From: Rhodospirillales bacterium
Lineage (GTDB): Bacteria; Pseudomonadota; Alphaproteobacteria; Rhodospirillales; Casp-alpha2
Length of the DNA: 64,000 nt
Reading direction: 5' to 3'
NCBI GenBank assembly: GCA_018662225.1
Contig: JABJGO010000088.1
Span: forward strand, 42,830-106,829
Shown: positions 28,438-47,960 of the stretch, piece by piece
Position numbering within the stretch: position 1 is the stretch's first letter
Layout: the number at the start of each line of letters is the position of its first letter
Position numbers and translations under genes: made by a program
Notes under the pieces: generated by a model
What the model saw: the letters and a program-made list of their open reading frames with translations, nothing else
The model's database searches: none
What the model was told of the DNA's origin: nothing

Positions 28438-28438
28438 T

Positions 28439-28764: not shown

Positions 28765-28856
28765 AACGACTCAAGAATGTTGGGCCGGGTTGGTATATTT
28801 ACAGAATAGACGCGTAGATATAAACTGCTGGTCTCTCCCTTATCTGATGTGCCTCT

Positions 28857-29057: not shown

Positions 29058-29420
29058 GGTGGTGGTCCAGTCTTCGGCCCATACAGCGCCGTCGGTTGAT
29101 TAGGTGGGTCTGGTGCCTGTCGGTGTGTGATGCGACTCAGTGACTCTTAAAACGACTCACAGCGTTATTGTATGGGTGGTGGTTCGCTAGAGAAACGTCT
29201 GTGCGCAGTGGCAATAGCAGACATTGAATGTCCGCTTAGCTCTCGATAACAGGCATATTTTGTGACCATTAAACATTTCCGAGAATAGCCAGAAGCGGAG
29301 GTTTGGGAAACGGCAAAATTGCCACAGATTACGCCTGCTTTCGCCCCAAGGCAGACATACGTATACGCCATTAACACAGTATTTTTTGGTTCAAACATCT
29401 TATGCAATCATGGTCACATT

Positions 29421-29645
29421 CTAAACAGCTTTAGTTGGCCTGTCGGTCATCTTCGACGCAACGCGCTCAAACCCCAGATCGCTCAGATCATGCTCGTTAA
29501 CAAATATATTGACCACACGGACAGGGTTGTCTTCGCAGATACTGTCATCAAGTCGCTCAAGGAATAAGGCGCGCTGGCTACGGTCTTCACCTTCAATAAG
29601 ACGCTTTATGAAATCTTCTCCAGAACGGTGGAAAAACAATATCAC
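29421..29645 (-). pseudogene. IS1182/IS5-type transposase N-terminal remnant (truncated after about 70 aa)
   Basis: The translation KRLIEGEDRSQRALFLERLDDSICEDNPVRVVNIFVNEHDLSDLGFERV matches the conserved N-terminus of IS1182-family transposases. No catalytic DDE region follows. Confidence 0.6.
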
Positions 29646-29685
29646 GCATCACGTTGTTGCACGGCCTCGCCCCGAAATCGGCCCA

Positions 29686-31846: not shown

Positions 31847-32710
31847 TCACATCAGATACCGCCCCATCAGTTCTTGCAGTTCATCGCGATGATTATGGGG
31901 ATCATGGGCGCTGAGTTGCGCCGGGCTTGAATCGTTCTCCAGCCAGTCGGCACCAAAACAGGGGCGATCTTCGTGGTAAATCATGCCAGTTGGTATTTTG
32001 CCTTCTTCATTTAACGCGAGGGTTTTGACGAACGCAGCACCACGGTCTTCCGCCGTGTATTCCCGATCAGCATCCAGGTCATAAAACCGGGCATTCCAGT
32101 CGGGATAGGTGTCGTGATAGGTCACACATGGCGACAATACTTCCAGGAAGGCAAATCCCTTCTTGGCGCGTACATGCTCAAGCGCCTGGACCATCAGGCT
32201 GTTAAGCTGATCTGCCTGGCGGATAAACCCGCGTGCCAGGAACGTGGTGCCGGGAATGGACAACCCCATAGCGATACCATCAATCGGGGCATCGGCAATC
32301 GCCTGACCGAAACTGCCCGATGTGGGTGAGTCCTGGCCCTTGGTCAAACCATAGACTGCGTTGTTCATAAGGATGTAAAGCACGTTGGCATTGCGTTTGA
32401 AGGCATGAACAAGGTGCCCGGCACCGATGGCGTAACCATCGCCATCACCACCCGCCGCAATAACTGTCAGATCAGGATTTGCAATGGATGCCCCCGTCGC
32501 CGTGGGTAATACACGACCGTGCATGGAATGATAGCCATAAGCATTGACGTTGTTCTGTATGGAACCTGAGCACCCGATGCCCGTTAGCAACATGGTCTCG
32601 CATGGTTGAATGCCAAGCACGTCAAACGCCCGTTCCAGAGCACCCTTGACGCCGTAGTGTCCGCAGCCGGAACACCAGACCGGATTGGTAGGGGTATAGG
32701 TTATTGTCAT
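31847..32710 (-). CDS. 2-oxoacid:acceptor oxidoreductase beta subunit (TPP and Fe-S binding)
   Basis: WCSGCGHYG Cys motif, TPP-binding GGDGDG...NNAVYGLTKGQ. It overlaps the alpha subunit by 4 nt. Confidence 0.85.
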   Translation of the reverse strand: MTITYTPTNPVWCSGCGHYGVKGALERAFDVLGIQPCETMLLTGIGCSGSIQNNVNAYGYHSMHGRVLPTATGASIANPDLTVIAAGGDGDGYAIGAGHLVHAFKRNANVLYILMNNAVYGLTKGQDSPTSGSFGQAIADAPIDGIAMGLSIPGTTFLARGFIRQADQLNSLMVQALEHVRAKKGFAFLEVLSPCVTYHDTYPDWNARFYDLDADREYTAEDRGAAFVKTLALNEEGKIPTGMIYHEDRPCFGADWLENDSSPAQLSAHDPHNHRDELQELMGRYLM

Positions 32711-34500
32711 TGTGCACCCTCCGCATCCTTGATCAGTTCGGCCAGTTCGTCAGTCCAGAACGGCGTTCCATCATATTTACGGATACCGTGAAGTTTGTCT
32801 GGATTAGCGCCCGCCCCGCTCAAGACACGTTCAAGCTGACCGCTCTCTGAATGCTCGACCACATAGACGCGATCACATCCGGCGATAAAATCCAAGGTCT
32901 CATCAAGCATGGGGAACAGAACGCGCGGGCGATGAACCTTCAAGCGCACGCCGTCATTCTCCAACAATCGGTAGGTTTCACTAATGATACCAGCTGCGAC
33001 GCCCACACCGATAATGCCAATCTTTGACGATGTGTCACCATAGGATACAGCCCTTGGCAGTAGCGGCTTTATGGTTCCCAGTTTGCGCGCGCGTTTATCC
33101 ATCATGGTCACGCGGTTGCCCGGCTCAGCGGAAACCTGACCCCACTCATTGCGCTCGTTACCTGTCACAAGGCTCATACCGCCGGGCGTGCCGGGCACAG
33201 CCCAGGGTGAAATACCGTCTTCGGTTACGCTGTAGCGCTTGTACTCATCCAACTCGGCAACCTCAGTCGCGCTCAGCATTTTGCCTGTATTCATCTCAAC
33301 ACTGTCGAGATCGAATACCGGCACCGTCATGCTGTCCTGTGACAGGGCGCGATCAAGGGCGATAAACACCGGGCACTGGGCAATTTGCGCAAGATTTGTT
33401 GCAAGGGCACCTATTTCGAAGCATTCGCTGGCATCACCCGGCGACAAAACGATGCGTGGAAAGTCGCCATTGCCGCCACTGATCATCATGCCGAGATCGC
33501 CCTGCTCAATCTTCGTCGGCATGCCGGTTGACGGCCCGGCACGCTGAGAGTTGACAATCACCATCGGAATTTCGGCTGAACCACAATGGCTGATACTTTC
33601 GCCCATCAAGGCAATGCCGGGACTGGAAGACCCGGTCATGGCGCGCGCACCGGTCAGGGCGGCACCGATGGCCATATTTATGGCCGATAACTCATCCTCG
33701 GCCTGAACCATGACGCCATCGAACTGAGGCAGGTTCGCCCCCAGCCAGTCCATAACCTCGGTCGCGGGTGTGATGGGGTACCCCGCATAAAACCGGCCGC
33801 CGGCAGCCAGAAATCCAAATGCCGCAGCTTCGTTCCCGGTGATAAAAAGGCGTTTCTGTTTTTCTCCAGCGGGCAGTTGCAGCATGCTCTTCCCGGGCGT
33901 TAAGCCCAGTTCATCAGCAACACCAAAGCCCAGTTTCAGGGCCTGGCGGTTACCGTCCAGGGCGCGGGCCGAAAGTTTCTTGAACCGATTTCGCAGATAG
34001 TCGTCTGCGTCGTCGTCGTTCAGTCCAATGACACGGGACAACAATCCAAAACCGAAACTGTTCTTGAACAAATCCCGGCGTAATTCCCGTACAGAAAAAC
34101 GGCTGAATGGCACGGGAAGAACGGTAGCTGTATGAGGGACAATCCCCTCCGGCATGGGCCCGCGTGAGGTGTCATAAATAACAATGGCATCACTGGTCAG
34201 ATACTGACCCCGCATGCGAATGGCTTCTTCATCAAAGGCAACCAGAATATTGATGGCACTGCCCAAACCGCCGAACTGCTCATGCGATCCGCGGACCAGT
34301 GCCGAGGCATGTCCACCTTTGATCCGCGACGCGATATTGCTGGTCCGGTAAAGATGCAGACCATGATGGGCCAGCACATCGGCCAGCAGCGTAATGATGG
34401 TCAGCGAGCCGTCACCGCCCTGACCGGCGACACATACTGTCAGGTCGTCGCACAAGCGGGGCTCAGCCTGAAATTTTCCGGGGTTTGTCATGACATTCAT
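32707..34500 (-). CDS. 2-oxoacid:acceptor oxidoreductase fused gamma-alpha subunit
   Basis: N-terminal gamma-like domain (VAGQGGDGSLT), then an alpha domain (GNEAAAFGFLAAGGRFYAGYPITPATE). Length is 597 aa. Confidence 0.85.
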   Translation of the reverse strand: MNVMTNPGKFQAEPRLCDDLTVCVAGQGGDGSLTIITLLADVLAHHGLHLYRTSNIASRIKGGHASALVRGSHEQFGGLGSAINILVAFDEEAIRMRGQYLTSDAIVIYDTSRGPMPEGIVPHTATVLPVPFSRFSVRELRRDLFKNSFGFGLLSRVIGLNDDDADDYLRNRFKKLSARALDGNRQALKLGFGVADELGLTPGKSMLQLPAGEKQKRLFITGNEAAAFGFLAAGGRFYAGYPITPATEVMDWLGANLPQFDGVMVQAEDELSAINMAIGAALTGARAMTGSSSPGIALMGESISHCGSAEIPMVIVNSQRAGPSTGMPTKIEQGDLGMMISGGNGDFPRIVLSPGDASECFEIGALATNLAQIAQCPVFIALDRALSQDSMTVPVFDLDSVEMNTGKMLSATEVAELDEYKRYSVTEDGISPWAVPGTPGGMSLVTGNERNEWGQVSAEPGNRVTMMDKRARKLGTIKPLLPRAVSYGDTSSKIGIIGVGVAAGIISETYRLLENDGVRLKVHRPRVLFPMLDETLDFIAGCDRVYVVEHSESGQLERVLSGAGANPDKLHGIRKYDGTPFWTDELAELIKDAEGAQ

Positions 34501-35828
34501 GTTTTGGCCTCACCTTCATCTGGCTTTTCATCTATTTGGGGTGCACCCGGCCCGGTCAGATAGAACGTCTTCGGGCACAAACAATCCAGCGCCACACGCT
34601 CTGCCAGATTTGGCATTTGAGCGGGCAGCGGGCGGTTCTTTTTCTTATCCGCCGATAGCTTGTCCATGAGAAACTCACCACGCGGCTCGTCGCTCAAAGG
34701 TCGGGTTTCCAGCAATCCGGCATCAAACGCAGCTTGAAAAGCTTCGTGGCCCCGTTCGGTTCTGATCAAGGTGTAGGTCCAGCCATCAAGGCCAATGCCG
34801 CCGCACCCGATATCGGCATTCTCGGCACCGTAATCGAGGCAATAGAGGCAGGCCGGGCGAGCGAATTCACGATACTTCTTCAGTGATACAGACCTGATCT
34901 CTTCCTCGCCATCAACCCGCACCACAACTTTGCCCTTGATGTTGATGTTATCGATCCGCTTGGGATCGATTTCCAGGATTTCACCCAATTTTTCGATGCT
35001 CTCATGGGTGAAACTTTCCGAACAAAACAGGCCGAACACCAGGGATATGTTATCGCGATACCAGTTGCTCATATCCATGCGAATAGAGGAATTCTGTTGC
35101 AACCGAACACCGTCCACCTGACAGGGCACGCCAACCACCGCGAGGGGGCCAATGTTCGCGCGCATGGCTTGCTGCAAGGCGAGCGTGTTGGGGGCGTAGG
35201 TATAGCGCGACGCGGCACAACCCAGTACATCGTCTCTGGTTCTTGCCAGCTTGTGACGACCGATCTGCCGGTTGTCCGGATAAACGTCACCCGTGACAGC
35301 ACCTTTCAGTGTTCCCGTATCAAGGCCATGGATAATCATGGTCGAGACCACACCGCCATCCTGGCATTTGGCGAGAACATCAGGATCGGTAGAACGGGCA
35401 TAGAGGCCGTATGAGTACTCGCCGTAGCTTGACGGCTCATGCGTTTCGCCCGCCGGTGGTTCTTTGAAATTCAGTATTTCCGGCAGGTCATTATCCGTGG
35501 GACGCAAGACCGGGCAGACTTCGGCGCAAAGGATGCAGTAGACGCACGCATCGGCTCTGGTATCGATGGGTGTTTCGTTCACATAGTCAAATACATCGAC
35601 CGGGCAAATACTAACACACGACGCACAGCCGATACACTTGCCTGGCTCAACCACCTGTTTCATCATGAAATCATTGGCCTTGAAGCCGCCGCGATTGATT
35701 TCTGTGCGCCAGGCAAAGGCCCATTCGTTAGGATCTGCGCCTTCATTAATCAACATGCGATAACGCGTATCCACATCAGCGGTACTTTTATCAAGGACAC
35801 GTTCTGTCATTTGTGTACGATCTTTCAA
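34497..35828 (-). CDS. FrhB/FdhB/FpoF-family (F420 hydrogenase/dehydrogenase beta-like) flavo-Fe-S protein with an N-terminal 2x[4Fe-4S] ferredoxin domain
   Basis: CIGCASCVSICP and CVYCILCAEVCP, followed by FrhB-like blocks (CQDGGVVST; AVVGVPCQVDG; GLFCSESF; CLYCLDYGAENADIGCGGIG; LIRTERG). It overlaps the OFOR alpha gene by 4 nt. Confidence 0.8.
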   Translation of the reverse strand: MKDRTQMTERVLDKSTADVDTRYRMLINEGADPNEWAFAWRTEINRGGFKANDFMMKQVVEPGKCIGCASCVSICPVDVFDYVNETPIDTRADACVYCILCAEVCPVLRPTDNDLPEILNFKEPPAGETHEPSSYGEYSYGLYARSTDPDVLAKCQDGGVVSTMIIHGLDTGTLKGAVTGDVYPDNRQIGRHKLARTRDDVLGCAASRYTYAPNTLALQQAMRANIGPLAVVGVPCQVDGVRLQQNSSIRMDMSNWYRDNISLVFGLFCSESFTHESIEKLGEILEIDPKRIDNINIKGKVVVRVDGEEEIRSVSLKKYREFARPACLYCLDYGAENADIGCGGIGLDGWTYTLIRTERGHEAFQAAFDAGLLETRPLSDEPRGEFLMDKLSADKKKNRPLPAQMPNLAERVALDCLCPKTFYLTGPGAPQIDEKPDEGEAKT

Positions 35829-35883
35829 ATTAACTTGTACATGCTGCCAAATTTGCCCATTAGTCGGTCTAACCAGCCTTTCT

Positions 35884-35915
35884 GTAAACTTGAAAAAGGG
35901 TTGTTTTCGCGTAAC
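35884..35915 (+). promoter_or_regulatory. Copy 1 of the conserved 32-nt motif GTAAAC-N21-GTAAC
   Basis: GTAAACTTGAAAAAGGGTTGTTTTCGCGTAAC, located in the 127-bp divergent region between the FrhB-like/OFOR operon and cofE. Confidence 0.65.
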
Positions 35916-35955
35916 CTAATCTTCACGCCATAACTTACATGTGTGACTGGAACCT

Positions 35956-36726
35956 ATGACCACCGCTATCGAAGCTTTTGCTGTTCCCGGTATTCCCCTG
36001 CTGAAAGCGGGCGATGATCTGGCGGCTATTATCTATGAAAGCCTGAAGGCGGGCGATCGTTTGCTCGTGGACGGTGATATTGTCGTGATTGCCCAAAAGG
36101 CCGTTTCCAAGGTCGAGGGGCGTACGGTTGATCTCGGGACCATCACGCCGTCTGCCAGGGCTGAGGAAGTGGCCGCGAAATGTGAAAAAGATCCCCGCGA
36201 AGTGGAGGTCATACTGTCTGAATCCACACAAATCTTGCGGACCGGCGAAAATCTACTGATCGTCGAGCACCGTAACGGCGCAATCCTTGCCAATGCCGGG
36301 GTGGACCGCTCCAATGTTTCTTCTGATTCCGGTCAGGAGAACGTGTTGCTGTTGCCCGTGGATGCCGATGCCAGCGCCCGCGCATTATGCAAGCAATTCC
36401 GAGAGATCAGCGGTAAAGATGTGGCCGTGATTATCAATGACAGCCTGGGTCGACCGTGGCGGCTGGGCACAACGGGTGTGGCAATCGGCGTTGCGGGTAT
36501 GCCTGCTCTCGTCGATTTGCGCGGTGACACAGACCTGTTCGGGCGGGAACTGAAAGTCAGTGTCCAGGCCATTGCTGATGAACTTGCCGCAACCGGAGGC
36601 CTGCTTCAGGGGCAGGGTGCCGAGGGTCAGCCGGTTGCCGTCATACGCGGCGACTTTGGCTGGGATGAGGACGAAAGTCCGGCCACGGCCTTGATCAGAC
36701 CAGAAGACATGGACCTGTTTCGATGA
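35956..36726 (+). CDS. cofE: Coenzyme F420-0:L-glutamate ligase (stand-alone CofE type, no nitroreductase domain)
   Basis: 256 aa with CofE-like blocks (GDIVVIAQKAVSKVEGR; NAGVDRSN). It overlaps cofD by 4 nt. Confidence 0.85.
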   Translation: MTTAIEAFAVPGIPLLKAGDDLAAIIYESLKAGDRLLVDGDIVVIAQKAVSKVEGRTVDLGTITPSARAEEVAAKCEKDPREVEVILSESTQILRTGENLLIVEHRNGAILANAGVDRSNVSSDSGQENVLLLPVDADASARALCKQFREISGKDVAVIINDSLGRPWRLGTTGVAIGVAGMPALVDLRGDTDLFGRELKVSVQAIADELAATGGLLQGQGAEGQPVAVIRGDFGWDEDESPATALIRPEDMDLFR

Positions 36727-37667
36727 CGATATCTGTTGTTGCCCTATCTGGTGGTGTAGGCGGGGCCAAGCTGGCTTCGGGCCTGTCGCGTGTTGTGGCA
36801 CCGGGAAATTTGCTGGTTGCAGCAAATACCGGCGATGACTTTACTCATATGGGGTTGCACATTTCACCGGATATCGATTCCATCTTCTATGCGGTGACTG
36901 ATTTGAACAACACCGAGACCGGTTGGGGACGTGTGGGTGAAACCTGGAATTTTATGGCCGCTCTGAAGGAATTTGGCGGTGAGGACTGGTTCAATCTTGG
37001 TGACAGTGATCTGGCCATGCATGTACTGCGCAGCCACTGGCTGCGCCAGGGGAAATCATTAAGTGAGGTTACTGACCGTTTCTGTCAGGCAATGAAGGTC
37101 TCATTCAAACTGGCGCCCATGAGTGATGACCCGGTTGCGACGATGATCGAGTCGGATCGTGGCACCTTACCCATGCAGGATTATTTCGTGCGCGAACACT
37201 GTGAACCTGTTGCGAAGGCCTTTTCTTATGAAGGAGCTACCGAAGCGCGCGCCAATCCTGAACTGATGCAGGCCCTCAAAGACGGTTCTCTGCAAGCCAT
37301 CATCATCTGCCCCTCCAATCCATACCTGAGCATTGATCCCATTTTCAGCTTATCAGAAATCAGGGATCAACTCAGAGCCGCAAACGTGCCCGTTATCGCT
37401 GTTTCCCCCATAGTCGGTGGTGCAGCCCTCAAAGGACCGCTTGGCAAGATCATGGCTGAGTTGAAAATCGAGCCAAGTTCTCTCTCCATCGCTAAACACT
37501 ATGGTGATCTGATTGATGCGTTGGTGATTGATGAAAGCGATGCCCATGAGTGTGAAAGCATCGAAGCACTCGGCATCCGCGCCCATACCGCACCGACCAT
37601 TATGAAGACCGTGGACGATCAAAAGGTGCTGGCGAAGAAGGTGCTGGAACTCGTTGGCGTTGAATAA
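36723..37667 (+). CDS. cofD: 2-phospho-L-lactate (or analogue) transferase, CofD/FbiA
   Basis: N-terminal ALSGGVGGAKLASGL and overall CofD layout. Length is 314 aa. Confidence 0.85.
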   Translation: MTISVVALSGGVGGAKLASGLSRVVAPGNLLVAANTGDDFTHMGLHISPDIDSIFYAVTDLNNTETGWGRVGETWNFMAALKEFGGEDWFNLGDSDLAMHVLRSHWLRQGKSLSEVTDRFCQAMKVSFKLAPMSDDPVATMIESDRGTLPMQDYFVREHCEPVAKAFSYEGATEARANPELMQALKDGSLQAIIICPSNPYLSIDPIFSLSEIRDQLRAANVPVIAVSPIVGGAALKGPLGKIMAELKIEPSSLSIAKHYGDLIDALVIDESDAHECESIEALGIRAHTAPTIMKTVDDQKVLAKKVLELVGVE

Positions 37668-37670
37668 GGT

Positions 37671-38462
37671 TTAGTCACGTTGCCAACTGGGTTTGCTGCG
37701 GTCGAAGAAACAGGCCAGGCCTTCTTCGGTCTCGGATTCTTCCCAGCGGTCGGCCAGTCGTTCGGCTGATGCGCTCTGGTAGTTGTGACCCGGATTTCGG
37801 GCCAGTTCGATCATCCACGCTTTGGTATTGGTAACCGCGCCCGGTGCGCATTCTAAGAACAGATTGATCTGTTTATCCGTGGCTTCGTCCAGTTCACTGG
37901 CCGGAACGGCTTTGCTGACCAGACCAAGGCCCTGTGCCTCGTGTCCGTCAAAGGAGCTGGCATTGAGCGCGACCTGACGCACAGCCCGCTCTCCCATGCG
38001 GGCCGCGATAAACGGGCCAATAGTAGCGGGGATCAGGCCCAGCTTGGTCTCGGTCAGGGCAAAGCGGGCATCTTGCACAGCAATCACGATGTCGCAAACT
38101 GCCATTATACCGATGCCGCCGCCGTAGGCCTGCCCATTAACCCGCGCAATTACCGGTTTCGTCAGTTCGTCCAGTTCCTTGAGCATCGTCGCCAGTTCGG
38201 TTGCCTGGGCAATACGCCCGGCCCGATCGCTTTCAACCTGCTCCTTCATCCAGCCCAAATCGCCACCGGCGCAAAAGCTCTTGCCTTCACCGCTCAACAC
38301 CACGACGCGGACTTTATCATCACCATCAATTTGCATTAGGGCGGCGCGCAAATCGGCAATCATCTGGGCATTCAGGCTGTTATGTTTATCCGGACGATTG
38401 AGCGTCAGACGGGCCACACCACGTCCATCAACGTCCAGCCGGATAGTTTCAAACGCACTCAT
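37671..38462 (-). CDS. Enoyl-CoA hydratase/isomerase family protein (methylglutaconyl-CoA hydratase-like)
   Basis: Crotonase fold (FCAGGDL; GQAYGGG). Start set at MSAFETIRL (38462). The longer ORF-track version would overlap the upstream lyase gene by 148 nt. Confidence 0.8.
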   Translation of the reverse strand: MSAFETIRLDVDGRGVARLTLNRPDKHNSLNAQMIADLRAALMQIDGDDKVRVVVLSGEGKSFCAGGDLGWMKEQVESDRAGRIAQATELATMLKELDELTKPVIARVNGQAYGGGIGIMAVCDIVIAVQDARFALTETKLGLIPATIGPFIAARMGERAVRQVALNASSFDGHEAQGLGLVSKAVPASELDEATDKQINLFLECAPGAVTNTKAWMIELARNPGHNYQSASAERLADRWEESETEEGLACFFDRSKPSWQRD

Positions 38463-38467
38463 GACGA

Positions 38468-39328
38468 TTACCCTTCCTGCTTTATGGCCATGACGAGGTG
38501 TTCGGCTTCGGCGAGTTTCAAGGTGTCCACGCCCGTATCGAACCCAAGTTCCGCCAATCTTTGTGCCACAGCGCGTGTATCCACATTGCCTTTGGCACCA
38601 TGCGCGTAAGGACAACCACCGAGGCCACCGACCGCTGTATCGAAAGTGCGCAAATCAAAACGCAGGCTTTCCTCGATATTCCCAAGGGCATTATCGCCTG
38701 TGTCATGGAAATGCCCGGCGAGTTTATCTGGTGGCACGACGCTGACGACGGCTTCCAGCATGGCCGCAACCGTCTCCGGGTTGCCCGAACCGATGGTATC
38801 ACCGAGGGATATCTCATAGCAGCCCATATTGAGCAGGCTCTCGGCCACGCGGGCGACCTGTGATGGTGCGACCGGTCCATCGTAAGGACACGCCACCACA
38901 CAGGACACATAGCCACGAACCGGAATACCATCTTTATTGGCCGCCGCCATCACGGGTTCAAACCGTTCCAAGCTTTCGGCAATGGAGCAATTGATGTTTT
39001 TCTGGCTAAAACCTTCCGAGGCGGCAGCGAACACAGCCACTTCGTCGGCGTCGGCCTTATGGGCACGCTCATAACCCTTCAGGTTTGGCGTCAAAGCCGC
39101 ATAGCGGATACCGGGTTTGCGATTGATCCCGGCCAACACTTCGGCCGCATCGGCAAGTTGTGGTACCCACTTGGGAGAGACAAAGGCTGTCGCTTCAATG
39201 CGCGTGAGGCCGCATTGGGAAAGCAGATTAATCAACGCCACCTTCCGATCTGTGGCGATCTTGGCTGACTGGTTTTGTAAACCGTCGCGAGGACCAACTT
39301 CAAACAGGCAAATGGAGTCAGAGGCCAT
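38468..39328 (-). CDS. Hydroxymethylglutaryl-CoA lyase (HMGL-like family)
   Basis: EVGPRDGLQN N-terminus and HFHDTGDNALGN metal-site region. Length is 286 aa. Confidence 0.85.
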   Translation of the reverse strand: MASDSICLFEVGPRDGLQNQSAKIATDRKVALINLLSQCGLTRIEATAFVSPKWVPQLADAAEVLAGINRKPGIRYAALTPNLKGYERAHKADADEVAVFAAASEGFSQKNINCSIAESLERFEPVMAAANKDGIPVRGYVSCVVACPYDGPVAPSQVARVAESLLNMGCYEISLGDTIGSGNPETVAAMLEAVVSVVPPDKLAGHFHDTGDNALGNIEESLRFDLRTFDTAVGGLGGCPYAHGAKGNVDTRAVAQRLAELGFDTGVDTLKLAEAEHLVMAIKQEG

Positions 39329-39346
39329 GGTCTGAGAATTCCCGGT

Positions 39347-41734
39347 TTACGCAGACTTGGTGTAAATGAGCGGATTGTTGATGATGGGGCTCAATGGTGC
39401 CGCATTAAATGAGGTTTCCCGAATGGTTTTCGGCACAGGTTGGTAAAGCGTTGTTCGTTGCTCAGGGGTTCGGTCCATCCCCGCAATCAACGCTTCCATG
39501 TCTTCTGGTGGCATTTCCTGGCCGTGAGAACTTCCGGCTGCACGACTGATACTCTCGTTCATTAAAGTGCCACCCAGATCATTGCACCCGGCTTTGAGGG
39601 CTGCAATTGCTCCTTCCGGGCCCATTTTGGTCCACGACGTTTGAATATTGGTAATATGTGGGTGCAGGACCAATCGGGCCACCGCATGCATTAATACCGC
39701 TTCGCGGAATGTGGGGCCTCGGCGGACAGCGCTTTTCAAGAAGAATGGTGCCTCCATATGGACAAACGGCAGCGGAACGAACTCCGAAATACCACCCGTG
39801 GTTTTCTGAATATCGCGCAGTAATAATAAGTGTCTGGCCCAGTGAACAGGGCGTTCGATATGGCCAAACATGATGGTCGATGTGGTTCCGATCCCCGCTT
39901 CATGAGCGGCCATAATTACCTCGCCCCATTGGGCTGTATTGATCTTATCTTTGCAGAGCACATCGCGAATTTCATCATCAAGAATTTCCGCCGCCGTCCC
40001 GGGCAGCGATCCCAGGCCCGCCTCACGCAGCATGACCAGATAATCAGCGAGACTCATGGCCAGTGTCTCAGCCCCGTGCCACACCTCCAGCGGCGAAAAG
40101 GCATGCATATGAATGTCAGGAAAGGCATTCTTCACCGAGCGGCAGATATCAACGTAGGTCTCACCCGTGTAGGAAGGATGAATACCACCCTGCATACAGA
40201 CTTCCGTTGCGCCCCGCGTCTGGGCCTCGTTCACCCGGCGAAGAATCTCGTCCATGGTCAGATCATAGGGTGCCCCGCGCAGGGCTTCGGCTTTCTTGCC
40301 CTTGGAAAAGGCGCAGAACCCACATTTGAAATAACACACGTTGGTATAGTTGATGTTGCGGTTGACCACATAGGTCACCGTATCGCCATTGACCTCGCGG
40401 CGCAGGCTGTCAGCGGCATCACAGACTGTTGTGAAATCTTCGCCCCGTGCCGAAAATAATGTCTCGACTTCACCCTGTTTCAGGTCGTGCCCGTCTGCCG
40501 CCTTCGACAGCAGGCGGGCCAATCCGACGCTGACGTGAGGCGCGGTTGCACGGCTCCGAATTTCAGGTGGTGGAGTTTTGCATCCGGTCATCCAGCCATC
40601 ACCACGGGCGAACCCATGCGAGTCAATGTTTTCAAATACGGCTGAGCGTAGCTTGGGTTCAATCCATGCCTCGTTATTGAAAATGTATGCCGGGTAAACC
40701 GCCAGACGTTCCAACAGGGTTTTACCAGTCTTGGCTGTTTCCACTGCCAGTGCATCGATTTCGGGCCACGGTGCTTCCGGGTTAACGAAGTCCGGCGTTA
40801 CCGGCGAGATGCCACCCCAATCATTGATACCAGCACCAATCATCGCTTGCCCCAGACCGGGGCTAAGGTTTGGCGGTGCCTGAATGCTCATATCCGGGCC
40901 AAATATGTGGCGTGCTGTGGCGATGGCCCACAACAGGTATTTTGTATCTGGCTCCGGCGAAGCAGACATTTTCGTGCCAGATTTGGCACGGAAATTCTGC
41001 ACAATAATTTCCTGAATATGGCCGTAGCGATCGTGCAGGTCTCGCAACGCAATCAGAGACTGGATACATTCTTCGCGGGTTTCGCCGATCCCGATCAGAA
41101 TGCCTGATGTCATGGGTACACAAAGTTCACCCGCAAGGCGCAAGGTTTCGAGCCTCAGCGACGGAACCTTGTCCGGTGATCCGTAGTGGGGCCCACCCTT
41201 TTCACACAACCGCTCAGACGTGCTTTCCAGCATCAGCCCCATGGAAACAGAAACGCCTTTGAGCATCCGTATTTCATGGGCGTTCATCAAGCCGGGATTG
41301 ATGTGTGGCAGCAATCCGGTTTCCTTGAAAACGAGGTCGGCCATGGCGGCCACGTATTCCAGCGTGGACTCAAATCCCATCTGCTGCAATTCTTCCCGGG
41401 CCAGCCGGAACCGTAATTCCGGTTTGTCGCCCAGGGTAAACAGCGCTTCCTTGCATCCGGTGGCTTGGCCCTGTCCGGCGATCGCCAGCACCTCGTCAGC
41501 GCTCATATAGACGCGTTGCCCGGCCTTCGGTGGTTGGGTAAATGTGCAGTAATGACAAACGTTGCGGCATAACTGGGTAAGGGGGATAAAAACTTTCCGT
41601 GAATACGTTACGACGTTGCCGTGCCCCTGATCACGCAATCGGGCCGCCGTTCTCATCAGATCGTTCAGATCGGATGAAACCAGCGCGTCCAGTTCTGGCG
41701 TTACAGACCCGGCATAGGGGCGGATAACATTCAT
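39347..41734 (-). CDS. fbiC: FO synthase, fused CofG/CofH (FbiC), two radical-SAM domains
   Basis: 795 aa with two CxxxCxxC motifs (CRNVCHYCTF; CYFKCGFCAF). Confidence 0.9.
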   Translation of the reverse strand: MNVIRPYAGSVTPELDALVSSDLNDLMRTAARLRDQGHGNVVTYSRKVFIPLTQLCRNVCHYCTFTQPPKAGQRVYMSADEVLAIAGQGQATGCKEALFTLGDKPELRFRLAREELQQMGFESTLEYVAAMADLVFKETGLLPHINPGLMNAHEIRMLKGVSVSMGLMLESTSERLCEKGGPHYGSPDKVPSLRLETLRLAGELCVPMTSGILIGIGETREECIQSLIALRDLHDRYGHIQEIIVQNFRAKSGTKMSASPEPDTKYLLWAIATARHIFGPDMSIQAPPNLSPGLGQAMIGAGINDWGGISPVTPDFVNPEAPWPEIDALAVETAKTGKTLLERLAVYPAYIFNNEAWIEPKLRSAVFENIDSHGFARGDGWMTGCKTPPPEIRSRATAPHVSVGLARLLSKAADGHDLKQGEVETLFSARGEDFTTVCDAADSLRREVNGDTVTYVVNRNINYTNVCYFKCGFCAFSKGKKAEALRGAPYDLTMDEILRRVNEAQTRGATEVCMQGGIHPSYTGETYVDICRSVKNAFPDIHMHAFSPLEVWHGAETLAMSLADYLVMLREAGLGSLPGTAAEILDDEIRDVLCKDKINTAQWGEVIMAAHEAGIGTTSTIMFGHIERPVHWARHLLLLRDIQKTTGGISEFVPLPFVHMEAPFFLKSAVRRGPTFREAVLMHAVARLVLHPHITNIQTSWTKMGPEGAIAALKAGCNDLGGTLMNESISRAAGSSHGQEMPPEDMEALIAGMDRTPEQRTTLYQPVPKTIRETSFNAAPLSPIINNPLIYTKSA

Positions 41735-42438
41735 CCTGACCTCAGTTCACTCATATGAGCATATTCATCAAACCGCTCGAGAACACCGATGTTTGCCAGA
41801 TATCGCGCCGTGCGCGTGTCAGAATTCCACTCCATAAATGCGGGCAGGTCATCTGGTGTATCAAGATCAAGCGCCAATCCCAAAGAAGGAACCACCGTTG
41901 GCGCCAGGCCCATGTGAATCGCCGCACTCTTGTGCGCTGAAAAGCTGTTCTCGCCAAATTGGGGGGTGATCACATCCGCTGGTGTGCACAACAGGGCATT
42001 GGTCCCGCCGCCATCCCATGCCGGAATCACTGTTACAGCCGGGGCGGCGCCATGATTGAAGATAATTCGATCGATTTCTTCCGCACAAACCAGTGGTACG
42101 TCGCCCGGAATGCTGATCATACCCGCGCAACCCCGGGCATCAAGATATCGCCCGGCTGTGGCCACGGCCTCACACAAACCGCAGCTTGTTGTCTCGCTCA
42201 GCACTTCCGCGTCAAATGTCTTCGCCAACTCCATGGCATCACGCTCACAGGTAACGACCAGCGTGCCGGCAATATTTGAAGCCTTCGACAAAGCGTCAAG
42301 CACATCACCGAGCATGGCATACGATAATTGCTGGCGTTCACGGGTATTCAACACGGGAGACAGGCGCTGCTTTGCCAGATCAAATCGTTTGACCGGAACA
42401 ACGGCCCAAATACCAAATAGGGGTTCGTTTTGGTTCAT
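41731..42438 (-). CDS. cofC: CofC/FbiD-type guanylyltransferase for F420 side-chain activation
   Basis: VVPVKRFDLAKQRL N-terminus, GGTNAL, DLDTPDDL. It overlaps fbiC by 4 nt. Confidence 0.8.
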   Translation of the reverse strand: MNQNEPLFGIWAVVPVKRFDLAKQRLSPVLNTRERQQLSYAMLGDVLDALSKASNIAGTLVVTCERDAMELAKTFDAEVLSETTSCGLCEAVATAGRYLDARGCAGMISIPGDVPLVCAEEIDRIIFNHGAAPAVTVIPAWDGGGTNALLCTPADVITPQFGENSFSAHKSAAIHMGLAPTVVPSLGLALDLDTPDDLPAFMEWNSDTRTARYLANIGVLERFDEYAHMSELRSG

Positions 42439-42445
42439 GATCGAC

Positions 42446-43201
42446 CTACCTCACCACCCGTGCCCGGGCTTTGGCAACGGCTTCCTGACGTTCCGGTGAA
42501 GACAGTAATTTTTTGCGCTCATTTTCCCAAAATTCAGGATCATAGCTGTCGCTGTCCATGGCGTTCAAAAGCCGCTTGGTTGCGTCCACCGCGCCTCGAA
42601 CATTGTCGCCAGCCCATTTGGCAATTGCCAGCGCGGCCTCAAGGCAGCTATCACTTTTGACAACGGATGAGACAATACCGGCATCAAGTGCCGCATCAGC
42701 ATCATACCGTTCGCCCAGGACCAGCAAGCTCATAATCGCATCGCGGCCCAACAATTTGCGCAAGCGTATCACTGATTTGGGACTGTACAGTAATCCTAGG
42801 CGCGTGGCGGGGACCTGAAATATGGCGTTCGACGCCGCAATCCGTACATCGCAGGTAACGGCTACGTCGAATGCGCCACCCATGCAGGGGCCATCAATGG
42901 CGGCGATGACCGGAACTGGGGCCTCGCGAATGGCTGTGGTAACAGCCTCAATAGCATCATCAACGGCCAGGTCCTCAATGGTGCCGTTTAACTCCGTCAA
43001 ATCACCGCCGGCGCTGAAGCATCCACCCGACCCGTGCAGGATGACTGCGCTTGTGTCATCTCTGACTTCACTGGTCAGGGCTTGATGGAGTTCACCGAGC
43101 AGAGCCCTTGACAACGCATTCTTGCGCTCGGGCCTGTTCAGGGTCAGGACAAGTGTGCCATCTTGATGATTAACGTTGATCAGTTCATTCATGCAAGACA
43201 C
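42446..43201 (-). CDS. Enoyl-CoA hydratase/isomerase family protein
   Basis: Crotonase signatures (FSAGGDL; DGPCMGGAF). Length is 251 aa. Confidence 0.8.
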   Translation of the reverse strand: MSCMNELINVNHQDGTLVLTLNRPERKNALSRALLGELHQALTSEVRDDTSAVILHGSGGCFSAGGDLTELNGTIEDLAVDDAIEAVTTAIREAPVPVIAAIDGPCMGGAFDVAVTCDVRIAASNAIFQVPATRLGLLYSPKSVIRLRKLLGRDAIMSLLVLGERYDADAALDAGIVSSVVKSDSCLEAALAIAKWAGDNVRGAVDATKRLLNAMDSDSYDPEFWENERKKLLSSPERQEAVAKARARVVR

Positions 43202-45429
43202 TCCTTGAATTGTGCTGCCTTCGATGATTCGTGATCATTCAGCGTGCGCCAAACCTGTTCCGGTGTCATGGGTAAATTATACTGACGCACACCGATAGCG
43301 TCATAAATGGCATTAGCGACGCAACCCGCGACGGGGATTACCGGCGGTTCCCCAATTGTTTTGGCGCCTGCGGGGCCATTGTCTTCAAACACTGGTGAAA
43401 AATATACATTTACCTGGGGCACATCAGGGAAGGTGGGTACTCGGTCATCCAGATAGCTGGGATTTAGCAACTGGCCGTTCTTTGAAACGGACGTGGTTTC
43501 AGATAGTGCCATACCAAGCCCTTGTACAACGCCGCCAATGACCTGGCCGATGGCCCCAAGGGGGTTAATGATCGTACCCGCATCGTGGGCTGCCCAGTAT
43601 TCTTCAACGGTAGACTTGCCGGTGAGGGTATCAACCTTCACACAACAACCGTGTACAGCGAATGTGTAGGCCGAGGCGATATTGCCGAAACCATGTATGT
43701 CAGCCGCGATCACACCCTTGGGTTTGTACTGTCCGGCTGCATGGAGTTCGTTTGCTCGACTTTTTGCAAGGGCGAGTTTGGCAATCTCGGCAATGGATGC
43801 ATTGGTTGAAATGCCGAGTTCCTTTACCAGGCTCATGCAGTTTTCCATGAATTTCTGGCACGCAATAATAGCGGCATGGGCGACAAAATATGAAGTTCGG
43901 CTGGCATAACTTCCGCGCCCGAAAGGCCCCGTTGCCGTATGCCCAAGCACAATTCTGAGCGAGTCCCGCGTAACACCCAGCTCCCGTTCAACGGTATGCC
44001 GGAGAACTTCTGCCGTACCACAACCCAGTTCCACCTCGCCCGAGGCGACGCAAATCATGCCATCAGCATTGACATCGATAGTGACATTGGAAATATCCGA
44101 GGTCTCATCATAGCCAGAGTTGCTGACACAATGGATGGCAGTGGAGAGGCCATAACCGTATTTAAAACGATCACCGGAACCAGACCGCTCCTGATTGCGA
44201 TGAGCCTGCATTTGTTCCTCGACTGTATCGAGGCAATCACCGTATCCACAGCTACTGATTTCCCATCCATGGATGCTGGTATCACCAGCGCCAACTGTAT
44301 TTCGGCGGCGCATATGCGCAGGATCGAGCCCAATCTTGCGGGCAAGTTCATCGACCAGTTGTTCCTGGGCAAATGTTGACTGCGGAATGCCGAAACCGCG
44401 GAAGCATTCGGTTGGCATATTGTTAGTATAAATCAATTGCCCCCGAGCCCTGACGGCGGCGTACTTGTAGAGATTGTCACCGCGCACCGCCGATGCCAGC
44501 ATGACTGGTGGCCCATGCAAGGTATAGGCACCATTGTCGGCCCAAACTTCAGTTTCCTTGGCCACAAGCTCGCCGTCTGATGTAGCACCGATGCGCATCT
44601 TTAAACGTGTAGCAAGACGGGTTCGGCCCGCCATCATGTCATCGCGATGTGATAGTACCAAGGCAACGTCACGCTGCAGTTTATGAGCAAACGCGAGGCA
44701 AACCAGATGCGTGGGATGTTCCCACTTGGCACCAAACGATCCACCCATGTCAGGTGTTACCACATCAACCGTGGCACCCCAGTGCTTTGCGATTTCGCTA
44801 TAACGACTGGCCAGCACGGAGGGGGCATGGGAGGCACTGACCAGTTCCAGATGGTCGCCACTTACACGAACGAAACACGCGCGAGGTTCCAGGTAGGCAT
44901 GAGGAACAGCCGCTGTTTCAAAGATGCCTTCCACCCAATGGGTGGCGCGTGCGGCGGCGTCATGCCAATCACCGGGGTTGGCAGAAAACCGGTCAGCAAC
45001 ATTATCTGGACAGGCTTCGTGCAGCGGTACTTCAAGCGCAAGGGCATCATCCACTCTGATGGCGTGAGGCAGAATTTCATAATCAATTTCAAGTGCGGCA
45101 ATTCCGGCGATCAAGGCTGCGTCATTGATGGCTGCCACAGCAGCCACGCCTTCACCCACATAACGAACGTGCGACGCTAAAACCGGTTCATCTGCAATGT
45201 GATGGCCCAGGGTAATATCCGCAAAATCTTCGGACGTCAGGACGCCCAGCACACCAGGAATGTTCATTGCTTTTTCTGTATTGATGCGAACAACACGGGC
45301 ATGGGCGTGAGGGCTACGGGCCAACCCGGTTACAGCTGTTTCCGGCGGGATCAAATCAGCCGTATAATGCGCCCGCCCGCAGCAACGATCCGAGATAGTC
45401 GCAATCTTCGGCGGGGGCATATATGACAT
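43189..45429 (-). CDS. Molybdopterin-binding large subunit of a xanthine dehydrogenase/CO dehydrogenase-family hydroxylase
   Basis: About 746 aa with a/b-hammerhead and MoCo-binding domain similarity. Start set at MSYMPP (45429), where TAATG overlaps the small-subunit stop. Confidence 0.85.
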   Translation of the reverse strand: MSYMPPPKIATISDRCCGRAHYTADLIPPETAVTGLARSPHAHARVVRINTEKAMNIPGVLGVLTSEDFADITLGHHIADEPVLASHVRYVGEGVAAVAAINDAALIAGIAALEIDYEILPHAIRVDDALALEVPLHEACPDNVADRFSANPGDWHDAAARATHWVEGIFETAAVPHAYLEPRACFVRVSGDHLELVSASHAPSVLASRYSEIAKHWGATVDVVTPDMGGSFGAKWEHPTHLVCLAFAHKLQRDVALVLSHRDDMMAGRTRLATRLKMRIGATSDGELVAKETEVWADNGAYTLHGPPVMLASAVRGDNLYKYAAVRARGQLIYTNNMPTECFRGFGIPQSTFAQEQLVDELARKIGLDPAHMRRRNTVGAGDTSIHGWEISSCGYGDCLDTVEEQMQAHRNQERSGSGDRFKYGYGLSTAIHCVSNSGYDETSDISNVTIDVNADGMICVASGEVELGCGTAEVLRHTVERELGVTRDSLRIVLGHTATGPFGRGSYASRTSYFVAHAAIIACQKFMENCMSLVKELGISTNASIAEIAKLALAKSRANELHAAGQYKPKGVIAADIHGFGNIASAYTFAVHGCCVKVDTLTGKSTVEEYWAAHDAGTIINPLGAIGQVIGGVVQGLGMALSETTSVSKNGQLLNPSYLDDRVPTFPDVPQVNVYFSPVFEDNGPAGAKTIGEPPVIPVAGCVANAIYDAIGVRQYNLPMTPEQVWRTLNDHESSKAAQFKECLA

Positions 45430-45884
45430 TATCCGACTTCCACAATAGCTTTGGTCAGCTGCTGATATCCACCGCAGCGGCAGATATTTCCCGCCACCAG
45501 TTTCGATACCGGCTCGACCCCCGTTTCGGTTCCGCCATCCTTGATCCAGGAACTCATTACGGCCATGCCGCCTGTGCAAAACCCACACTGTACGCCGCCG
45601 TGCTTCTCACAGGCGCAGGAAAATCTTTCGAGATGATCCTTTTGTAATCCTTCAACAGTCGTGATTTCGCGCCCCTCAACCACGCCACTGAGCAGCAGGC
45701 ACGAACACATGGGTTGTCCATCCACCAGTACCGTACAGGCACCGCAGTCACCTTCGCTGCAACCGTCTTTTACCCCGGTCAGGCCAAGTTTGGTGCGCAG
45801 AAAATCGATCAATCGCCGTGCGTACCAGACGTCGGGGATATCGTGGTTATGACCATTTACACGTACTGACTTATTGGCCATCAT
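45429..45884 (-). CDS. [2Fe-2S]-binding small subunit of the molybdenum hydroxylase
   Basis: CSEGDCGACTV and CGFCTGG...CRCGGY motifs. Length is 151 aa. Confidence 0.9.
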   Translation of the reverse strand: MMANKSVRVNGHNHDIPDVWYARRLIDFLRTKLGLTGVKDGCSEGDCGACTVLVDGQPMCSCLLLSGVVEGREITTVEGLQKDHLERFSCACEKHGGVQCGFCTGGMAVMSSWIKDGGTETGVEPVSKLVAGNICRCGGYQQLTKAIVEVG

Positions 45885-46813
45885 GACCTCTCTCCATATC
45901 GCGCAGCAGCCTGTTTGATCACATCGACAACCAGCGCTCTGATCAATTGGTGTCGATACCCGGCACTGGCGCGCTGATCGGAAATCGGTTCACACATTTG
46001 GCTGGCCGCATCGGCACACTGACTCAATCTGTCTTCTGAAAGCGGGTATCCAATCAGACCATCCGCTGCCGAGCTGGCATCAATAGCCGTTTCCCCAACA
46101 GCGCCAAGAACCAGCATGACAGATTTTAGGGCTACGCCGTCTTGATCGAAATCAAGTTTGACCGCCACACTGGCAAAGGCCAGATCCAGGGCAGCACGCT
46201 GGGTAAACCGCTGATAGGCACTGGTTTGATTTTTACCCAACCTGGTCAGGGTCAGGCCTGTAACCAGTTCTCCATCACGCAGCGCCGTTTTGCCGGGGCC
46301 TATCATGAAGTTCTTCAGGTCAATACGTCGGGTGTTGTTTTTTCTGTCAGCGGTTTCAACGACGCAGTCGTGGACGAGTAGACCGGGTACGGTATCGGCG
46401 GCCGGTGAAGCCGTGCAGACGTTACCAACAATGGTGGCCTGATTGCGCAACTGTACGGAGCCGACCAATTGCGCCCCGTCGGCCACGGCGGGTGCCTTAT
46501 GGCGGAAAGATTGAGAGCGAATTAGTTGGGCCAGAGGCGTTGCCGCGCCGATGCGAATTGTCTCGCCCGATTCTTCAAACTCCTTAAGGGCCTCAATCCC
46601 ACCGGTCCAGACCAGATGGTGCGGCGCACCACGTTGGGCCGCCACTAACAGGATATCCGTGCCGCCGGCGATCAGGCTGGCTCCCTGATGCATGTGTTCG
46701 AACACCTCGGCCAGATCAGTCGGGCATTGCAGTGCAATTTCCGGTAAGTGACTGGGGCGCAGAGAAGAAGCGGGTTCAATGATAAAGTCAGGTAACATAA
46801 GCGGTTTACACAA
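45881..46813 (-). CDS. FAD-binding medium subunit of the molybdenum hydroxylase (CoxM/XdhB-like)
   Basis: LIAGGTDILL FAD-binding motif. The start is ambiguous: TTG at 46813 or ATG at 46798. Confidence 0.8.
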   Translation of the reverse strand: MCKPLMLPDFIIEPASSLRPSHLPEIALQCPTDLAEVFEHMHQGASLIAGGTDILLVAAQRGAPHHLVWTGGIEALKEFEESGETIRIGAATPLAQLIRSQSFRHKAPAVADGAQLVGSVQLRNQATIVGNVCTASPAADTVPGLLVHDCVVETADRKNNTRRIDLKNFMIGPGKTALRDGELVTGLTLTRLGKNQTSAYQRFTQRAALDLAFASVAVKLDFDQDGVALKSVMLVLGAVGETAIDASSAADGLIGYPLSEDRLSQCADAASQMCEPISDQRASAGYRHQLIRALVVDVIKQAAARYGERS

Positions 46814-46857
46814 CGTTTCGTTAATGTCGTGTCAGTTAATGCAGATGGCCTCAAATC

Positions 46858-46889
46858 GTAAACTTGAAAAAGGGTTCGCATTACGTAAC
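46858..46889 (+). promoter_or_regulatory. Copy 2 of the conserved 32-nt motif GTAAAC-N21-GTAAC
   Basis: GTAAACTTGAAAAAGGGTTCGCATTACGTAAC. It ends 9 nt before the LysR ATG (46899), in the region divergent from the Mo-hydroxylase/cofC/fbiC operon. Confidence 0.65.
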
Positions 46890-46898
46890 AATATTTTC

Positions 46899-47804
46899 AT
46901 GCAAAACCTCAGAAAATATCTACCTCCCGTTAATAGTCTGGTTGCCTTCGAGGCTTCGGCCCGACATTTGAGTTTCACCCGCGCCGGACAAGAGCTGTTG
47001 ATTAGCCGTGAAGCGGTTTCCCGGCAAATCCGGATTCTTGAAGATTATCTGAGGATAAAGCTGTTTGTGCGGTTGTATCGGGCACTGGAACTGACGCCGG
47101 CGGGCGAAGAAATGCAGGTTGTCGTTTCAGAAAGCCTCGACAGGATCGCGCGAACCGCTACGTCTCTTCAACACGACAACCAACCTACCAAAATTTCTGT
47201 TACGGCGACCATTGCCATTACGACATTCTGGCTAACCCCCAGATTGTCGCACTTCAGCGACACCCATCCCCAGGTGGATATCAGTATCAGTTCGTCGGAT
47301 ACGCCTCTCGACATGATGGACGCTGGCAGCGACGTGGGTATTCTTTACGGCAAGGGGAAATGGCCGGGTTACAAGTCTACGCATCTTTTTGATGTGGAGA
47401 ATTTTCCGATATGTTCGCCGCGTTATCTGGAAGAAACTGATCCGATCTCCTCTTTGGAGGATTTGAAGAACCATACCTTGCTCTATCTGAACGGGAGCAT
47501 GCATGCGATCGAAAACTGGGATTGGTGGATGGAAAGCCTCGGTATGGAAATGCCTGCCAATGTTCGCAAGCTGGGATTCGATAGTTACGATAATGTGATT
47601 CAGGCTGCCATGGACAGCCAGGGAATCGCATTGGGGTTTACCAACCTGTTGGGTGACCAGTTATCCAAAGGCCGCCTGGTCCGTCCTTTGGAACAGGCAT
47701 TCAGCAAGGGTAACGGCATCTATCTGGTGGTGCCGCGCGGCAAACCAATGAGTGCCAATGCGCAGAAGTTCTTCGACTGGGTTAAGAGTGAAGTTGAAGC
47801 GTAA
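46899..47804 (+). CDS. LysR-family transcriptional regulator
   Basis: HTH FEASARHLSFTRAGQELLISREAVSRQI. Start set at MQNLRKY. No Shine-Dalgarno sequence is visible upstream. Confidence 0.85.
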   Translation: MQNLRKYLPPVNSLVAFEASARHLSFTRAGQELLISREAVSRQIRILEDYLRIKLFVRLYRALELTPAGEEMQVVVSESLDRIARTATSLQHDNQPTKISVTATIAITTFWLTPRLSHFSDTHPQVDISISSSDTPLDMMDAGSDVGILYGKGKWPGYKSTHLFDVENFPICSPRYLEETDPISSLEDLKNHTLLYLNGSMHAIENWDWWMESLGMEMPANVRKLGFDSYDNVIQAAMDSQGIALGFTNLLGDQLSKGRLVRPLEQAFSKGNGIYLVVPRGKPMSANAQKFFDWVKSEVEA

Positions 47805-47834
47805 AACGCCCCGGCGATCTTACATGAAGAAAAC

Positions 47835-47866
47835 GTTACGTTAGCCCAATCCTTTTTCAAGTTTAC
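47835..47866 (-). promoter_or_regulatory. Copy 3 (inverted orientation) of the conserved 32-nt motif
   Basis: The reverse complement reads GTAAACTTGAAAAAGGATTGGGCTAACGTAAC. It lies between the LysR stop and the LLM operon. Confidence 0.65.
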
Positions 47867-47960
47867 GCTCAATTCAATCCTGCCTATTCCTCCAAAAGAT
47901 AAATTTCGGGGTGCAAATCCACTTTGTTTGCCCCACAGACCATTTGAGGAGGATACCAAC

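Follow-up and report, generated by a model that had tools for sequence, protein, structure and literature searches.

A set of genes for the biosynthesis of cofactor F420 (cofE, cofD, cofC and fbiC) is found in a 64,000-nucleotide stretch of DNA from a Rhodospirillales bacterium (assembly GCA_018662225.1, contig JABJGO010000088.1, positions 42,830 to 106,829), hereafter the window. The genes form two pairs, one on each strand, and cofC-fbiC lies between genes for a molybdenum (Mo) hydroxylase, two crotonases and a hydroxymethylglutaryl-CoA (HMG-CoA) lyase (Table 1). We consider it probable that the genes constitute a functional proteobacterial-type F420 set and belong to a mobile catabolic island that depends on F420 and carries the synthesis of its own cofactor. 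The assembly is a metagenome-assembled genome (MAG) of a marine-type alphaproteobacterium, 3.5 Mb in 103 contigs, with a completeness of 95.7%. Families were called by comparing scores with NCBIfam equivalog cut-offs, and also by Pfam domains and matches to PDB structures. The gene positions and all junctions given in a preliminary description of the window, made from the letters alone, were recovered by the open reading frame (ORF) map and the family scans. Start codons were refined for moL (ATG 45420) and for ech2 (ATG 43192), the latter with an AAGGAG ribosome-binding site ahead of it.

All four biosynthetic products score above their equivalog cut-offs (Table 1), which agrees with the earlier proposal that the two pairs together give a complete route from FO to F420-n. 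CofE additionally matches PF01996 at 253 bits. In FbiC the CofG and CofH domain models both exceed their cut-offs and two radical-SAM CxxxCxxC motifs are intact, at residues 56 and 467. Membership of CofC was judged by the Mg-binding aspartates and the substrate Lys and Ser of Mycobacterium tuberculosis FbiD (K17, D116, S166, D188, D190). The corresponding residues K17, D113, S165, D191 and D193 are conserved when the protein is aligned to 7P97 and 6BWG. CofD matches Methanosarcina mazei CofD (3C3D, 1.3e-59) and Mycobacterium smegmatis FbiA (6UVX, 2.7e-48), with 205 bits to the archaeal lactyl-diphosphoguanosine (LPPG) transferase versus 168 bits to the mycobacterial phosphoenolpyruvate (PEP)-pathway transferase. 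Among named records, a Rhodospirillales MAG has the nearest FbiC (79% identity); those of other Alphaproteobacteria are 60-64% identical. The F420 biosynthetic enzymes themselves are ordinary and of proteobacterial type. FbiC, a fused CofG/CofH radical-SAM enzyme, would make the FO chromophore, CofC would activate a C3 acid using GTP, CofD would move the activated acid onto FO and the single-domain CofE would attach the gamma-glutamyl tail.

Table 1. Genes and other features of the F420 locus in window coordinates. Scores are in bits, with the equivalog cut-off in brackets.
Feature	Position	Strand	Assignment	Score (cut-off)
cofE	35956-36726	+	256 aa; stand-alone F420-0:gamma-glutamyl ligase, TIGR01916	280.5 (180.65)
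cofD	36723-37667	+	LPPG/enolpyruvyl-diphosphoguanosine (EPPG):FO transferase, TIGR01819	294.6 (257.45)
cofC	41731-42438	-	guanylyltransferase, 2-phospho-L-lactate (2-PL)/PEP type, TIGR03552	144.7 (105)
fbiC	39347-41734	-	795 aa; fused CofG-CofH FO synthase, NF006687	1126.5 (1018)
moM	45881-46813	-	Mo-hydroxylase subunit by Pfam domains; first gene of minus-strand block
moS	45429-45884	-	Mo-hydroxylase subunit by Pfam domains
moL	43189-45420	-	Mo-hydroxylase subunit by Pfam domains
ech2	42446-43192	-	crotonase family; PF00378 at 2.1e-41
hmgl	38468-39328	-	HMG-CoA-lyase family, NF004283	431.7 (246)
ech1	37671-38462	-	PRK07468-type crotonase, methylglutaconyl-CoA-hydratase-like, NF005675; final gene of minus-strand block	365.9 (350)
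LysR regulator, then Mer-like luciferase-like monooxygenase family (LLM) oxidoreductase	46779-48962	+	divergent from moM; family matches; the LLM gene opens a plus-strand catabolic operon
frhB-like, oforA, oforB	31847-35828	-	divergent from cofE; FrhB domains plus alpha and beta subunits of a 2-oxoacid oxidoreductase (OFOR)
Intergenic region	35811-35955		about 145 nt, AT-rich; between frhB-like (probable ATG 35810) and cofE

The pair cofC-fbiC lies within a block of eight genes on the minus strand, moM-moS-moL-ech2-cofC-fbiC-hmgl-ech1, which spans 9.1 kb. Tight same-strand spacing of the kind seen here is a classical operon signature. From moM to ech1 the junctions are -4, +8, -4, +7, -4, +18 and +5 nt, negative values being overlaps. 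Hence moL starts 8 nt beyond the moS stop, the ech2 start overlaps the moL stop as ATGA, the ech2 stop lies 7 nt before cofC, cofC and fbiC overlap by 4 nt (as do cofE and cofD), hmgl starts 18 nt past fbiC and ech1 starts at ATG 38462, 5 nt past the hmgl stop. By their Pfam domains moM, moS and moL encode a three-subunit molybdenum hydroxylase of the XDH/CODH family, none of the three reaching an NCBIfam equivalog cut-off. At the far end of the block cofD and ech1 converge, with stop codons 3 nt apart (window 37665-37673). This leaves no room for a terminator, so the two transcripts must overlap or end inside the opposite gene.

Three further sequence sets have their genes in this order: a Rhodospirillales MAG (L002), a genome of the same family and another genus (G014, locus L086) and a set of 12 contigs (L178/L179). 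Relative to the window, FbiC is 75-79% and moL 68-78% identical in L002, G014 and the P0001 contigs, and moL of the 12-contig set is 78% identical. The largest gap measured in the blocks of L002 and G014 is 56 nt, and gene calls on L178/L179 are similarly tight. G014 lacks hmgl; there fbiC is followed directly by ech1. Outside these sets, an hmgl or crotonase gene adjoins fbiC in none of 79 other genome loci and none of 80 metagenome loci. When metagenomes were scanned for closer FbiC relatives, identity did not exceed 62%, and fbiC adjoined hmgl or ech genes in no other case. The block from moM to ech1 thus combines a single strand, short or overlapping junctions and conservation in relatives, as expected for a single operon. 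Of the unit of roughly 9 kb in which the preliminary description had embedded cofC-fbiC, the same-strand arrangement, the tight junctions and the occurrence in relatives stand, whereas co-transcription is inferred from spacing and synteny. The presence of cof genes inside a catabolic operon is real and lineage-specific and sheds light on why this bacterium makes F420, although it is a gene-order variant of known components.

Only nine of 61 related genomes have FbiC; the two genomes of the same genus are without it. By DNA comparison the match between one congener and the window ends at about 27,630, and neither congener has any match in 44-64 kb. In contrast, G014 is collinear with the window from 32,088 to 56,898 at 67-74% nucleotide identity. 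From this mismatch with congeners and the collinearity with G014 it follows that the F420 genes are not a housekeeping operon but part of an accessory island of roughly 25 kb, which both same-genus genomes lack. Only G014 carries orthologues of moL and the LLM gene alongside the island. The similarity to the same-genus genome G001 ends at about 27,630, just before a repeat-containing, gene-poor stretch at 28,234-29,057 (window ~27,630-29,700). The accessory region may have its left edge here.

Two types of island were distinguished. Type A has the order moMSL-ech2-cofC-fbiC described above, while Type B has cofD-cofC-fbiC after frhB-oforAB. Type B was found in a Rhodospirillaceae MAG and a Joint Genome Institute (JGI) contig, with moL 59-60% identical to that of the window. 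It shares with the window the LysR-LLM-hydrolase-crotonase-SDR-ligase-ACAD operon (SDR, short-chain dehydrogenase/reductase; ACAD, acyl-CoA dehydrogenase) and the moMSL-ech2 operon. The complete Type B layout (L180 10001-22158; L181 10001-22228) consists of moMSL-ech2, a lone cofE on the other strand, and frhB-oforA-oforB-cofD-cofC-fbiC in one direction. The layout of G023 resembles it, and in both the cof genes follow directly after oforB. This gene order offers independent support for a functional link between FrhB-OFOR and F420. In both types ech2 directly follows moL in every island examined. More distant orthologous modules, one of them in an Actinomycetia MAG, retain genes for the Mo-hydroxylase, LLM, alpha/beta-hydrolase, amidase, CoA-ligase and SDR; no cof genes were found within 10 kb of them. 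These gene orders show that the layout in the window represents one form of a conserved larger island. Within it the cof genes vary in exact position but are always at the tail of an island operon.

Two further observations concern the molybdenum hydroxylase. In one distant relative (L184), DDE transposase genes at 3628-4932 and 13805-15355 interrupt and flank the Mo-hydroxylase/LLM/amidase module, which is consistent with a mobile module. In Xanthobacteraceae-like loci (L038 5471-12334; L111 5073-12325) a CoxL-like Mo-hydroxylase large subunit, an M20-type peptidase, Fno and FbiC are encoded in that order on one strand. This CoxL-like subunit is 25-29% identical to moL, and the pattern occurs in 12 of 80 metagenome and about nine of 80 genome loci. 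It is a second, recurrent association of Mo-hydroxylase and F420 genes.

Besides the cof and fbi genes the island encodes the LysR regulator, the Mo-hydroxylase, the Mer-like LLM, a hydrolase, an amidase, CoA-ester enzymes and FrhB-OFOR. The ten best PDB matches of the LLM (47928-48962) are all F420-dependent enzymes (Mer, Fgd, fHMAD and Adf), and we predict that it uses F420. The frhB-like product carries Fer4, FrhB_N and FrhB_C domains; together with OFOR it is a candidate F420-reducing 2-oxoacid oxidoreductase. A second LLM gene (57090-58091, plus strand) sits just beyond the part of the island common to G014 and scores 175 bits on TIGR03619, for which the F420-dependent cut-off is 166.9. 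The intergenic region upstream of cofE is presumed to hold the promoter of cofE-cofD. A 164-aa ORF just upstream of cofE (35439-35933, plus strand) was weighed as a further gene of the pathway but discarded: no family matches it, it runs antisense to the Fer4-encoding 5' part of frhB, and it is unlikely to be a true gene. Scanning the window with Rfam and for tRNAs gave no hits.

The preliminary description had singled out the short CofE as a distinguishing trait. The protein does indeed lack the C-terminal nitroreductase domain of FbiB: it stops at residue 256, aligns only to positions 11-243 of the 449-position FbiB model PRK13294, thus matching its N-terminal half, and is closest to single-domain archaeal CofE structures (best match Archaeoglobus fulgidus CofE, 2PHN, 1.5e-48). 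It is also the only F420 ligase, being the sole PF01996 match in the genome. The form is not unusual, however, since a free-standing CofE has been described as the state in Proteobacteria (PMC8498797, PMC8764529). The nitroreductase-type dehydro-F420 reductase has been placed only in Actinobacteria, as fused FbiB, and in Thermomicrobia, as free FbiE (PMC8498797, PMC8764529).

An FbiB-type gene elsewhere in the genome, which would have taken over the role given to CofE, was searched for in the 95.7%-complete assembly and not found. The same holds for the reductase: no homologue of the FbiB C-terminal domain or FbiE was detected genome-wide, the top TIGR03553 match reaching 43 bits against a cut-off of 249.55. 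That match is BluB, with 262 bits on TIGR02476. PF00881 identifies only one other gene of the nitroreductase fold, encoding a 216-aa protein without family assignment. Fno was not found in the genome, nor was a PPOX of the F420 type; four genes of the PNPOx fold are PdxH or PPOX of the FMN type. None of eight F420-positive relatives has an FbiB C-terminal/FbiE homologue above cut-off (best 67 bits). The absence of the reductase is therefore clade-wide and part of a known open question rather than a peculiarity of this locus. Genes inserted in other alphaproteobacterial F420 operons were considered as the missing enzyme and rejected, being Fno or Fgd-like LLM.

The preliminary description had left 2-PL, PEP and 3-phosphoglycerate (3-PG) as possible precursors. 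A Ser or Thr at the position of S162 of Mycetohabitans rhizoxinica CofC is diagnostic for 3-PG activation, to which M91, C95 and H145 contribute, whereas 2-PL/PEP enzymes have Gly at the S162 position and Leu at the M91 position (Hasan et al., PMC8764529). Although the closest solved structure to the CofC of the window is that same Mycetohabitans enzyme (7P97, E 1.1e-29), its residues M91, C95, H145 and S162 align to L88, V92, G144 and G162. Neither the window nor two close relatives, which share the G162 and L88 pattern, has the diagnostic Ser or Thr. With this set of residues 3PG-F420 is unlikely, and we give the 3-PG precursor very little credence. The sequence does not decide between 2-PL and PEP, a question common to all F420-producing Alphaproteobacteria. 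We lean slightly to 2-PL, because both alphaproteobacterial CofCs tested in vitro favour it (PMC8764529), because no known reductase is present and because CofD is somewhat nearer to the archaeal LPPG transferase than to the mycobacterial one.

PEP, which CofC and CofD would then use as their mycobacterial counterparts do, is the less probable substrate. It would give dehydro-F420, which is either left unreduced or reduced by an unrecognised enzyme. One may suppose that the reductase is an island enzyme outside the nitroreductase family, such as the LLM or an acyl-CoA-dehydrogenase-type flavoprotein, or that dehydro-F420 is itself the working cofactor. The absence of FbiB C-terminal/FbiE from the genome and from its eight F420-positive relatives would fit this, as would the lack of a known bacterial source of 2-PL (PMC8498797), the turnover of PEP at 3.5-30% by every tested CofC and the shift toward PEP of the cognate CofC/D pair of Entotheonella (PMC8764529). 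The preference of the two tested alphaproteobacterial CofCs speaks against it and so, as weak evidence, do the CofD scores. Moreover, no candidate reductase is kept beside the cof genes across alphaproteobacterial loci, where the inserts are Fno or Fgd-like. On balance this PEP route is doubtful, and 2-PL remains our favoured precursor.

A second objection concerns co-transcription. The pair cofC-fbiC, and perhaps hmgl-ech1, could have weak constitutive promoters of their own within the 3' ends of upstream genes, the spacing being a by-product of rearrangement in a compact genome. Minus-strand hexamers resembling sigma-70 promoters do occur ahead of cofC, at a distance of about 100 nt (42568-42539), and ahead of ech2, at about 85 nt (43304-43276, 10 of 12 matches). 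In addition hmgl is dispensable in G014, and islands of Type A and Type B place the cof genes differently, so gene order has been fluid in evolution. However, the number of promoter-like sites equals the expectation from shuffled sequence (14 versus 13.6). Synonymous changes erode the two sites, located in ech2 and moL, in L178, L002 and G014, thus there is no sign of a conserved internal promoter. At three of the junctions start and stop overlap by 4 nt, and the widest junction is 18 nt, while in both island types the cof genes stand at the 3' end of an operon of F420-related enzymes. We hold separate promoters to be unlikely and prefer co-transcription of cofC-fbiC with the block.

A methylglutaconyl-CoA-hydratase-like crotonase (ech1) beside an HMG-CoA lyase (hmgl), the only such lyase in the genome by tblastn, could belong to the leucine/isovalerate (Liu) pathway. 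Yet methylcrotonyl-CoA carboxylase (MCCase) was not found in the MAG: apart from AccA/AccD there is a single acyl-CoA carboxyltransferase, PccB/MmdA-like, with 795 bits on TIGR01117 (C19:26981-28426 of the genome). The canonical role in leucine catabolism was therefore rejected as improbable. Most likely hmgl and ech1 serve the island's own substrate. Since hmgl is missing from G014, it is not needed for F420 synthesis. That the crotonase and HMG-CoA-lyase genes around cofC-fbiC help to make a new F420 side-chain precursor instead of serving catabolism is barely credible: ech2 does directly precede cofC in every Type A island, fbiC has ech1 after it even where hmgl is absent and the missing MCCase removes the canonical explanation, but in Type B ech2 stays with moMSL while cofC-fbiC lies elsewhere without hmgl or ech1, all other proteobacterial F420 operons do without such genes, the CofC pocket residues are of the ordinary 2-PL/PEP type and no chemistry connects CoA esters to a phosphorylated C3 acid.

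Among known systems the operons of Paracoccus denitrificans and Oligotropha carboxidovorans, as reviewed in PMC8498797 (after Ney et al. 2017), are alike in fused FbiC, stand-alone CofE, CofC with residues of the 2-PL/PEP type, CofD and no FbiB. The usual alphaproteobacterial orders are llm-cofE-cofD-cofC-fbiC or fbiC-(fno)-cofE-cofD-cofC. In the window, by contrast, the genes are divided between two convergent units, the pair cofC-fbiC stands between crotonase, HMG-CoA-lyase and Mo-hydroxylase genes, and instead of Fno or Fgd an FrhB-OFOR unit adjoins. The 3PG-F420 pathway of M. rhizoxinica (7P97; PMC8764529) is similar in its CofC, which is the closest, its stand-alone CofE and its lack of need for a reductase; it differs in CofC residues S162/M91/C95/H145, which in the window are G162/L88/V92/G144, so that 3-PG activation is not expected. 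Thermomicrobium roseum, in the account that PMC8498797 gives of Braga et al. 2020, likewise has a stand-alone CofE, together with a stand-alone nitroreductase FbiE. Of the latter the genome studied here has no homologue, its nitroreductase-fold genes being only BluB and the 216-aa protein.

The mycobacterial FbiA/FbiB/FbiC/FbiD pathway, which proceeds from PEP to dehydro-F420-0 with reduction by the FbiB C-terminal domain, shares the fused FbiC and the CofC/FbiD and CofD/FbiA chemistry. Unlike in mycobacteria, the nitroreductase domain is neither on the CofE of the window nor elsewhere in the genome. In the picrate (npd) cluster of Rhodococcus, F420-dependent catabolic enzymes are clustered with the F420-recycling npdG/Fno. 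The island resembles it in placing catabolic enzymes, here predicted to depend on F420, beside genes that keep the cofactor usable. It is unlike the npd cluster in that the biosynthesis genes are themselves inside catabolic operons and that the host lineage is otherwise without F420.

Taken together, the intact enzymes, the conserved block and the patchy distribution point to a functional F420 set that travels with its users. In this mechanism cofC-fbiC would be read within the eight-gene transcript from moM to ech1, starting from the divergent promoter on the LysR side, and cofE-cofD from the promoter region shared with frhB-oforAB. Since these promoters are shared with island enzymes, F420 synthesis would be induced jointly with the enzymes using and recharging the cofactor. 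In Proteobacteria an F420-dependent catabolic module would thus travel with cofactor-making genes and a candidate F420-reducing enzyme.

Several points weigh against this. Co-transcription is deduced from spacing and synteny, and the promoter and terminator scans, being at chance level, neither back nor rule out internal promoters. The dependence of the island enzymes on F420 is predicted. FbiE, Fno or MCCase could sit in the unassembled 4% of the MAG. CofC assays do not reveal which of the two, 2-PL or PEP, is used in vivo (PMC8764529), bacteria have no known source of 2-PL and the Alphaproteobacteria tested so far contain F420 in trace amounts only (PMC8498797). Having weighed these, we still regard the mobile island with its own cofactor synthesis as the probable explanation.

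A more far-reaching interpretation is offered tentatively, as something that may well prove wrong. The cof and fbi genes could be the cofactor cartridge of a mobile, self-sufficient redox island, the cofactor being made only on demand through the 3' ends of the user operons. The Mo-hydroxylase/LLM/amidase module, which also occurs in F420-proficient Actinobacteria, would work in F420-naive Proteobacteria only when accompanied by fbiC-cofCDE and FrhB-OFOR. The island or its host would then also hold an undescribed solution for the side chain, because neither FbiE nor a known source of 2-PL is present.

What F420 production serves in Proteobacteria is acknowledged to be an open question (PMC8498797). 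The island ties F420 biosynthesis genes to defined candidate users and a candidate reductase in a lineage that is otherwise without the cofactor, and so gives a testable answer for one clade. The compact, co-adapted set of CofC, CofD, CofE and FbiC, which does without FbiB, could serve for heterologous F420 production and could help to settle whether 2-PL or PEP is used by Gram-negative producers.

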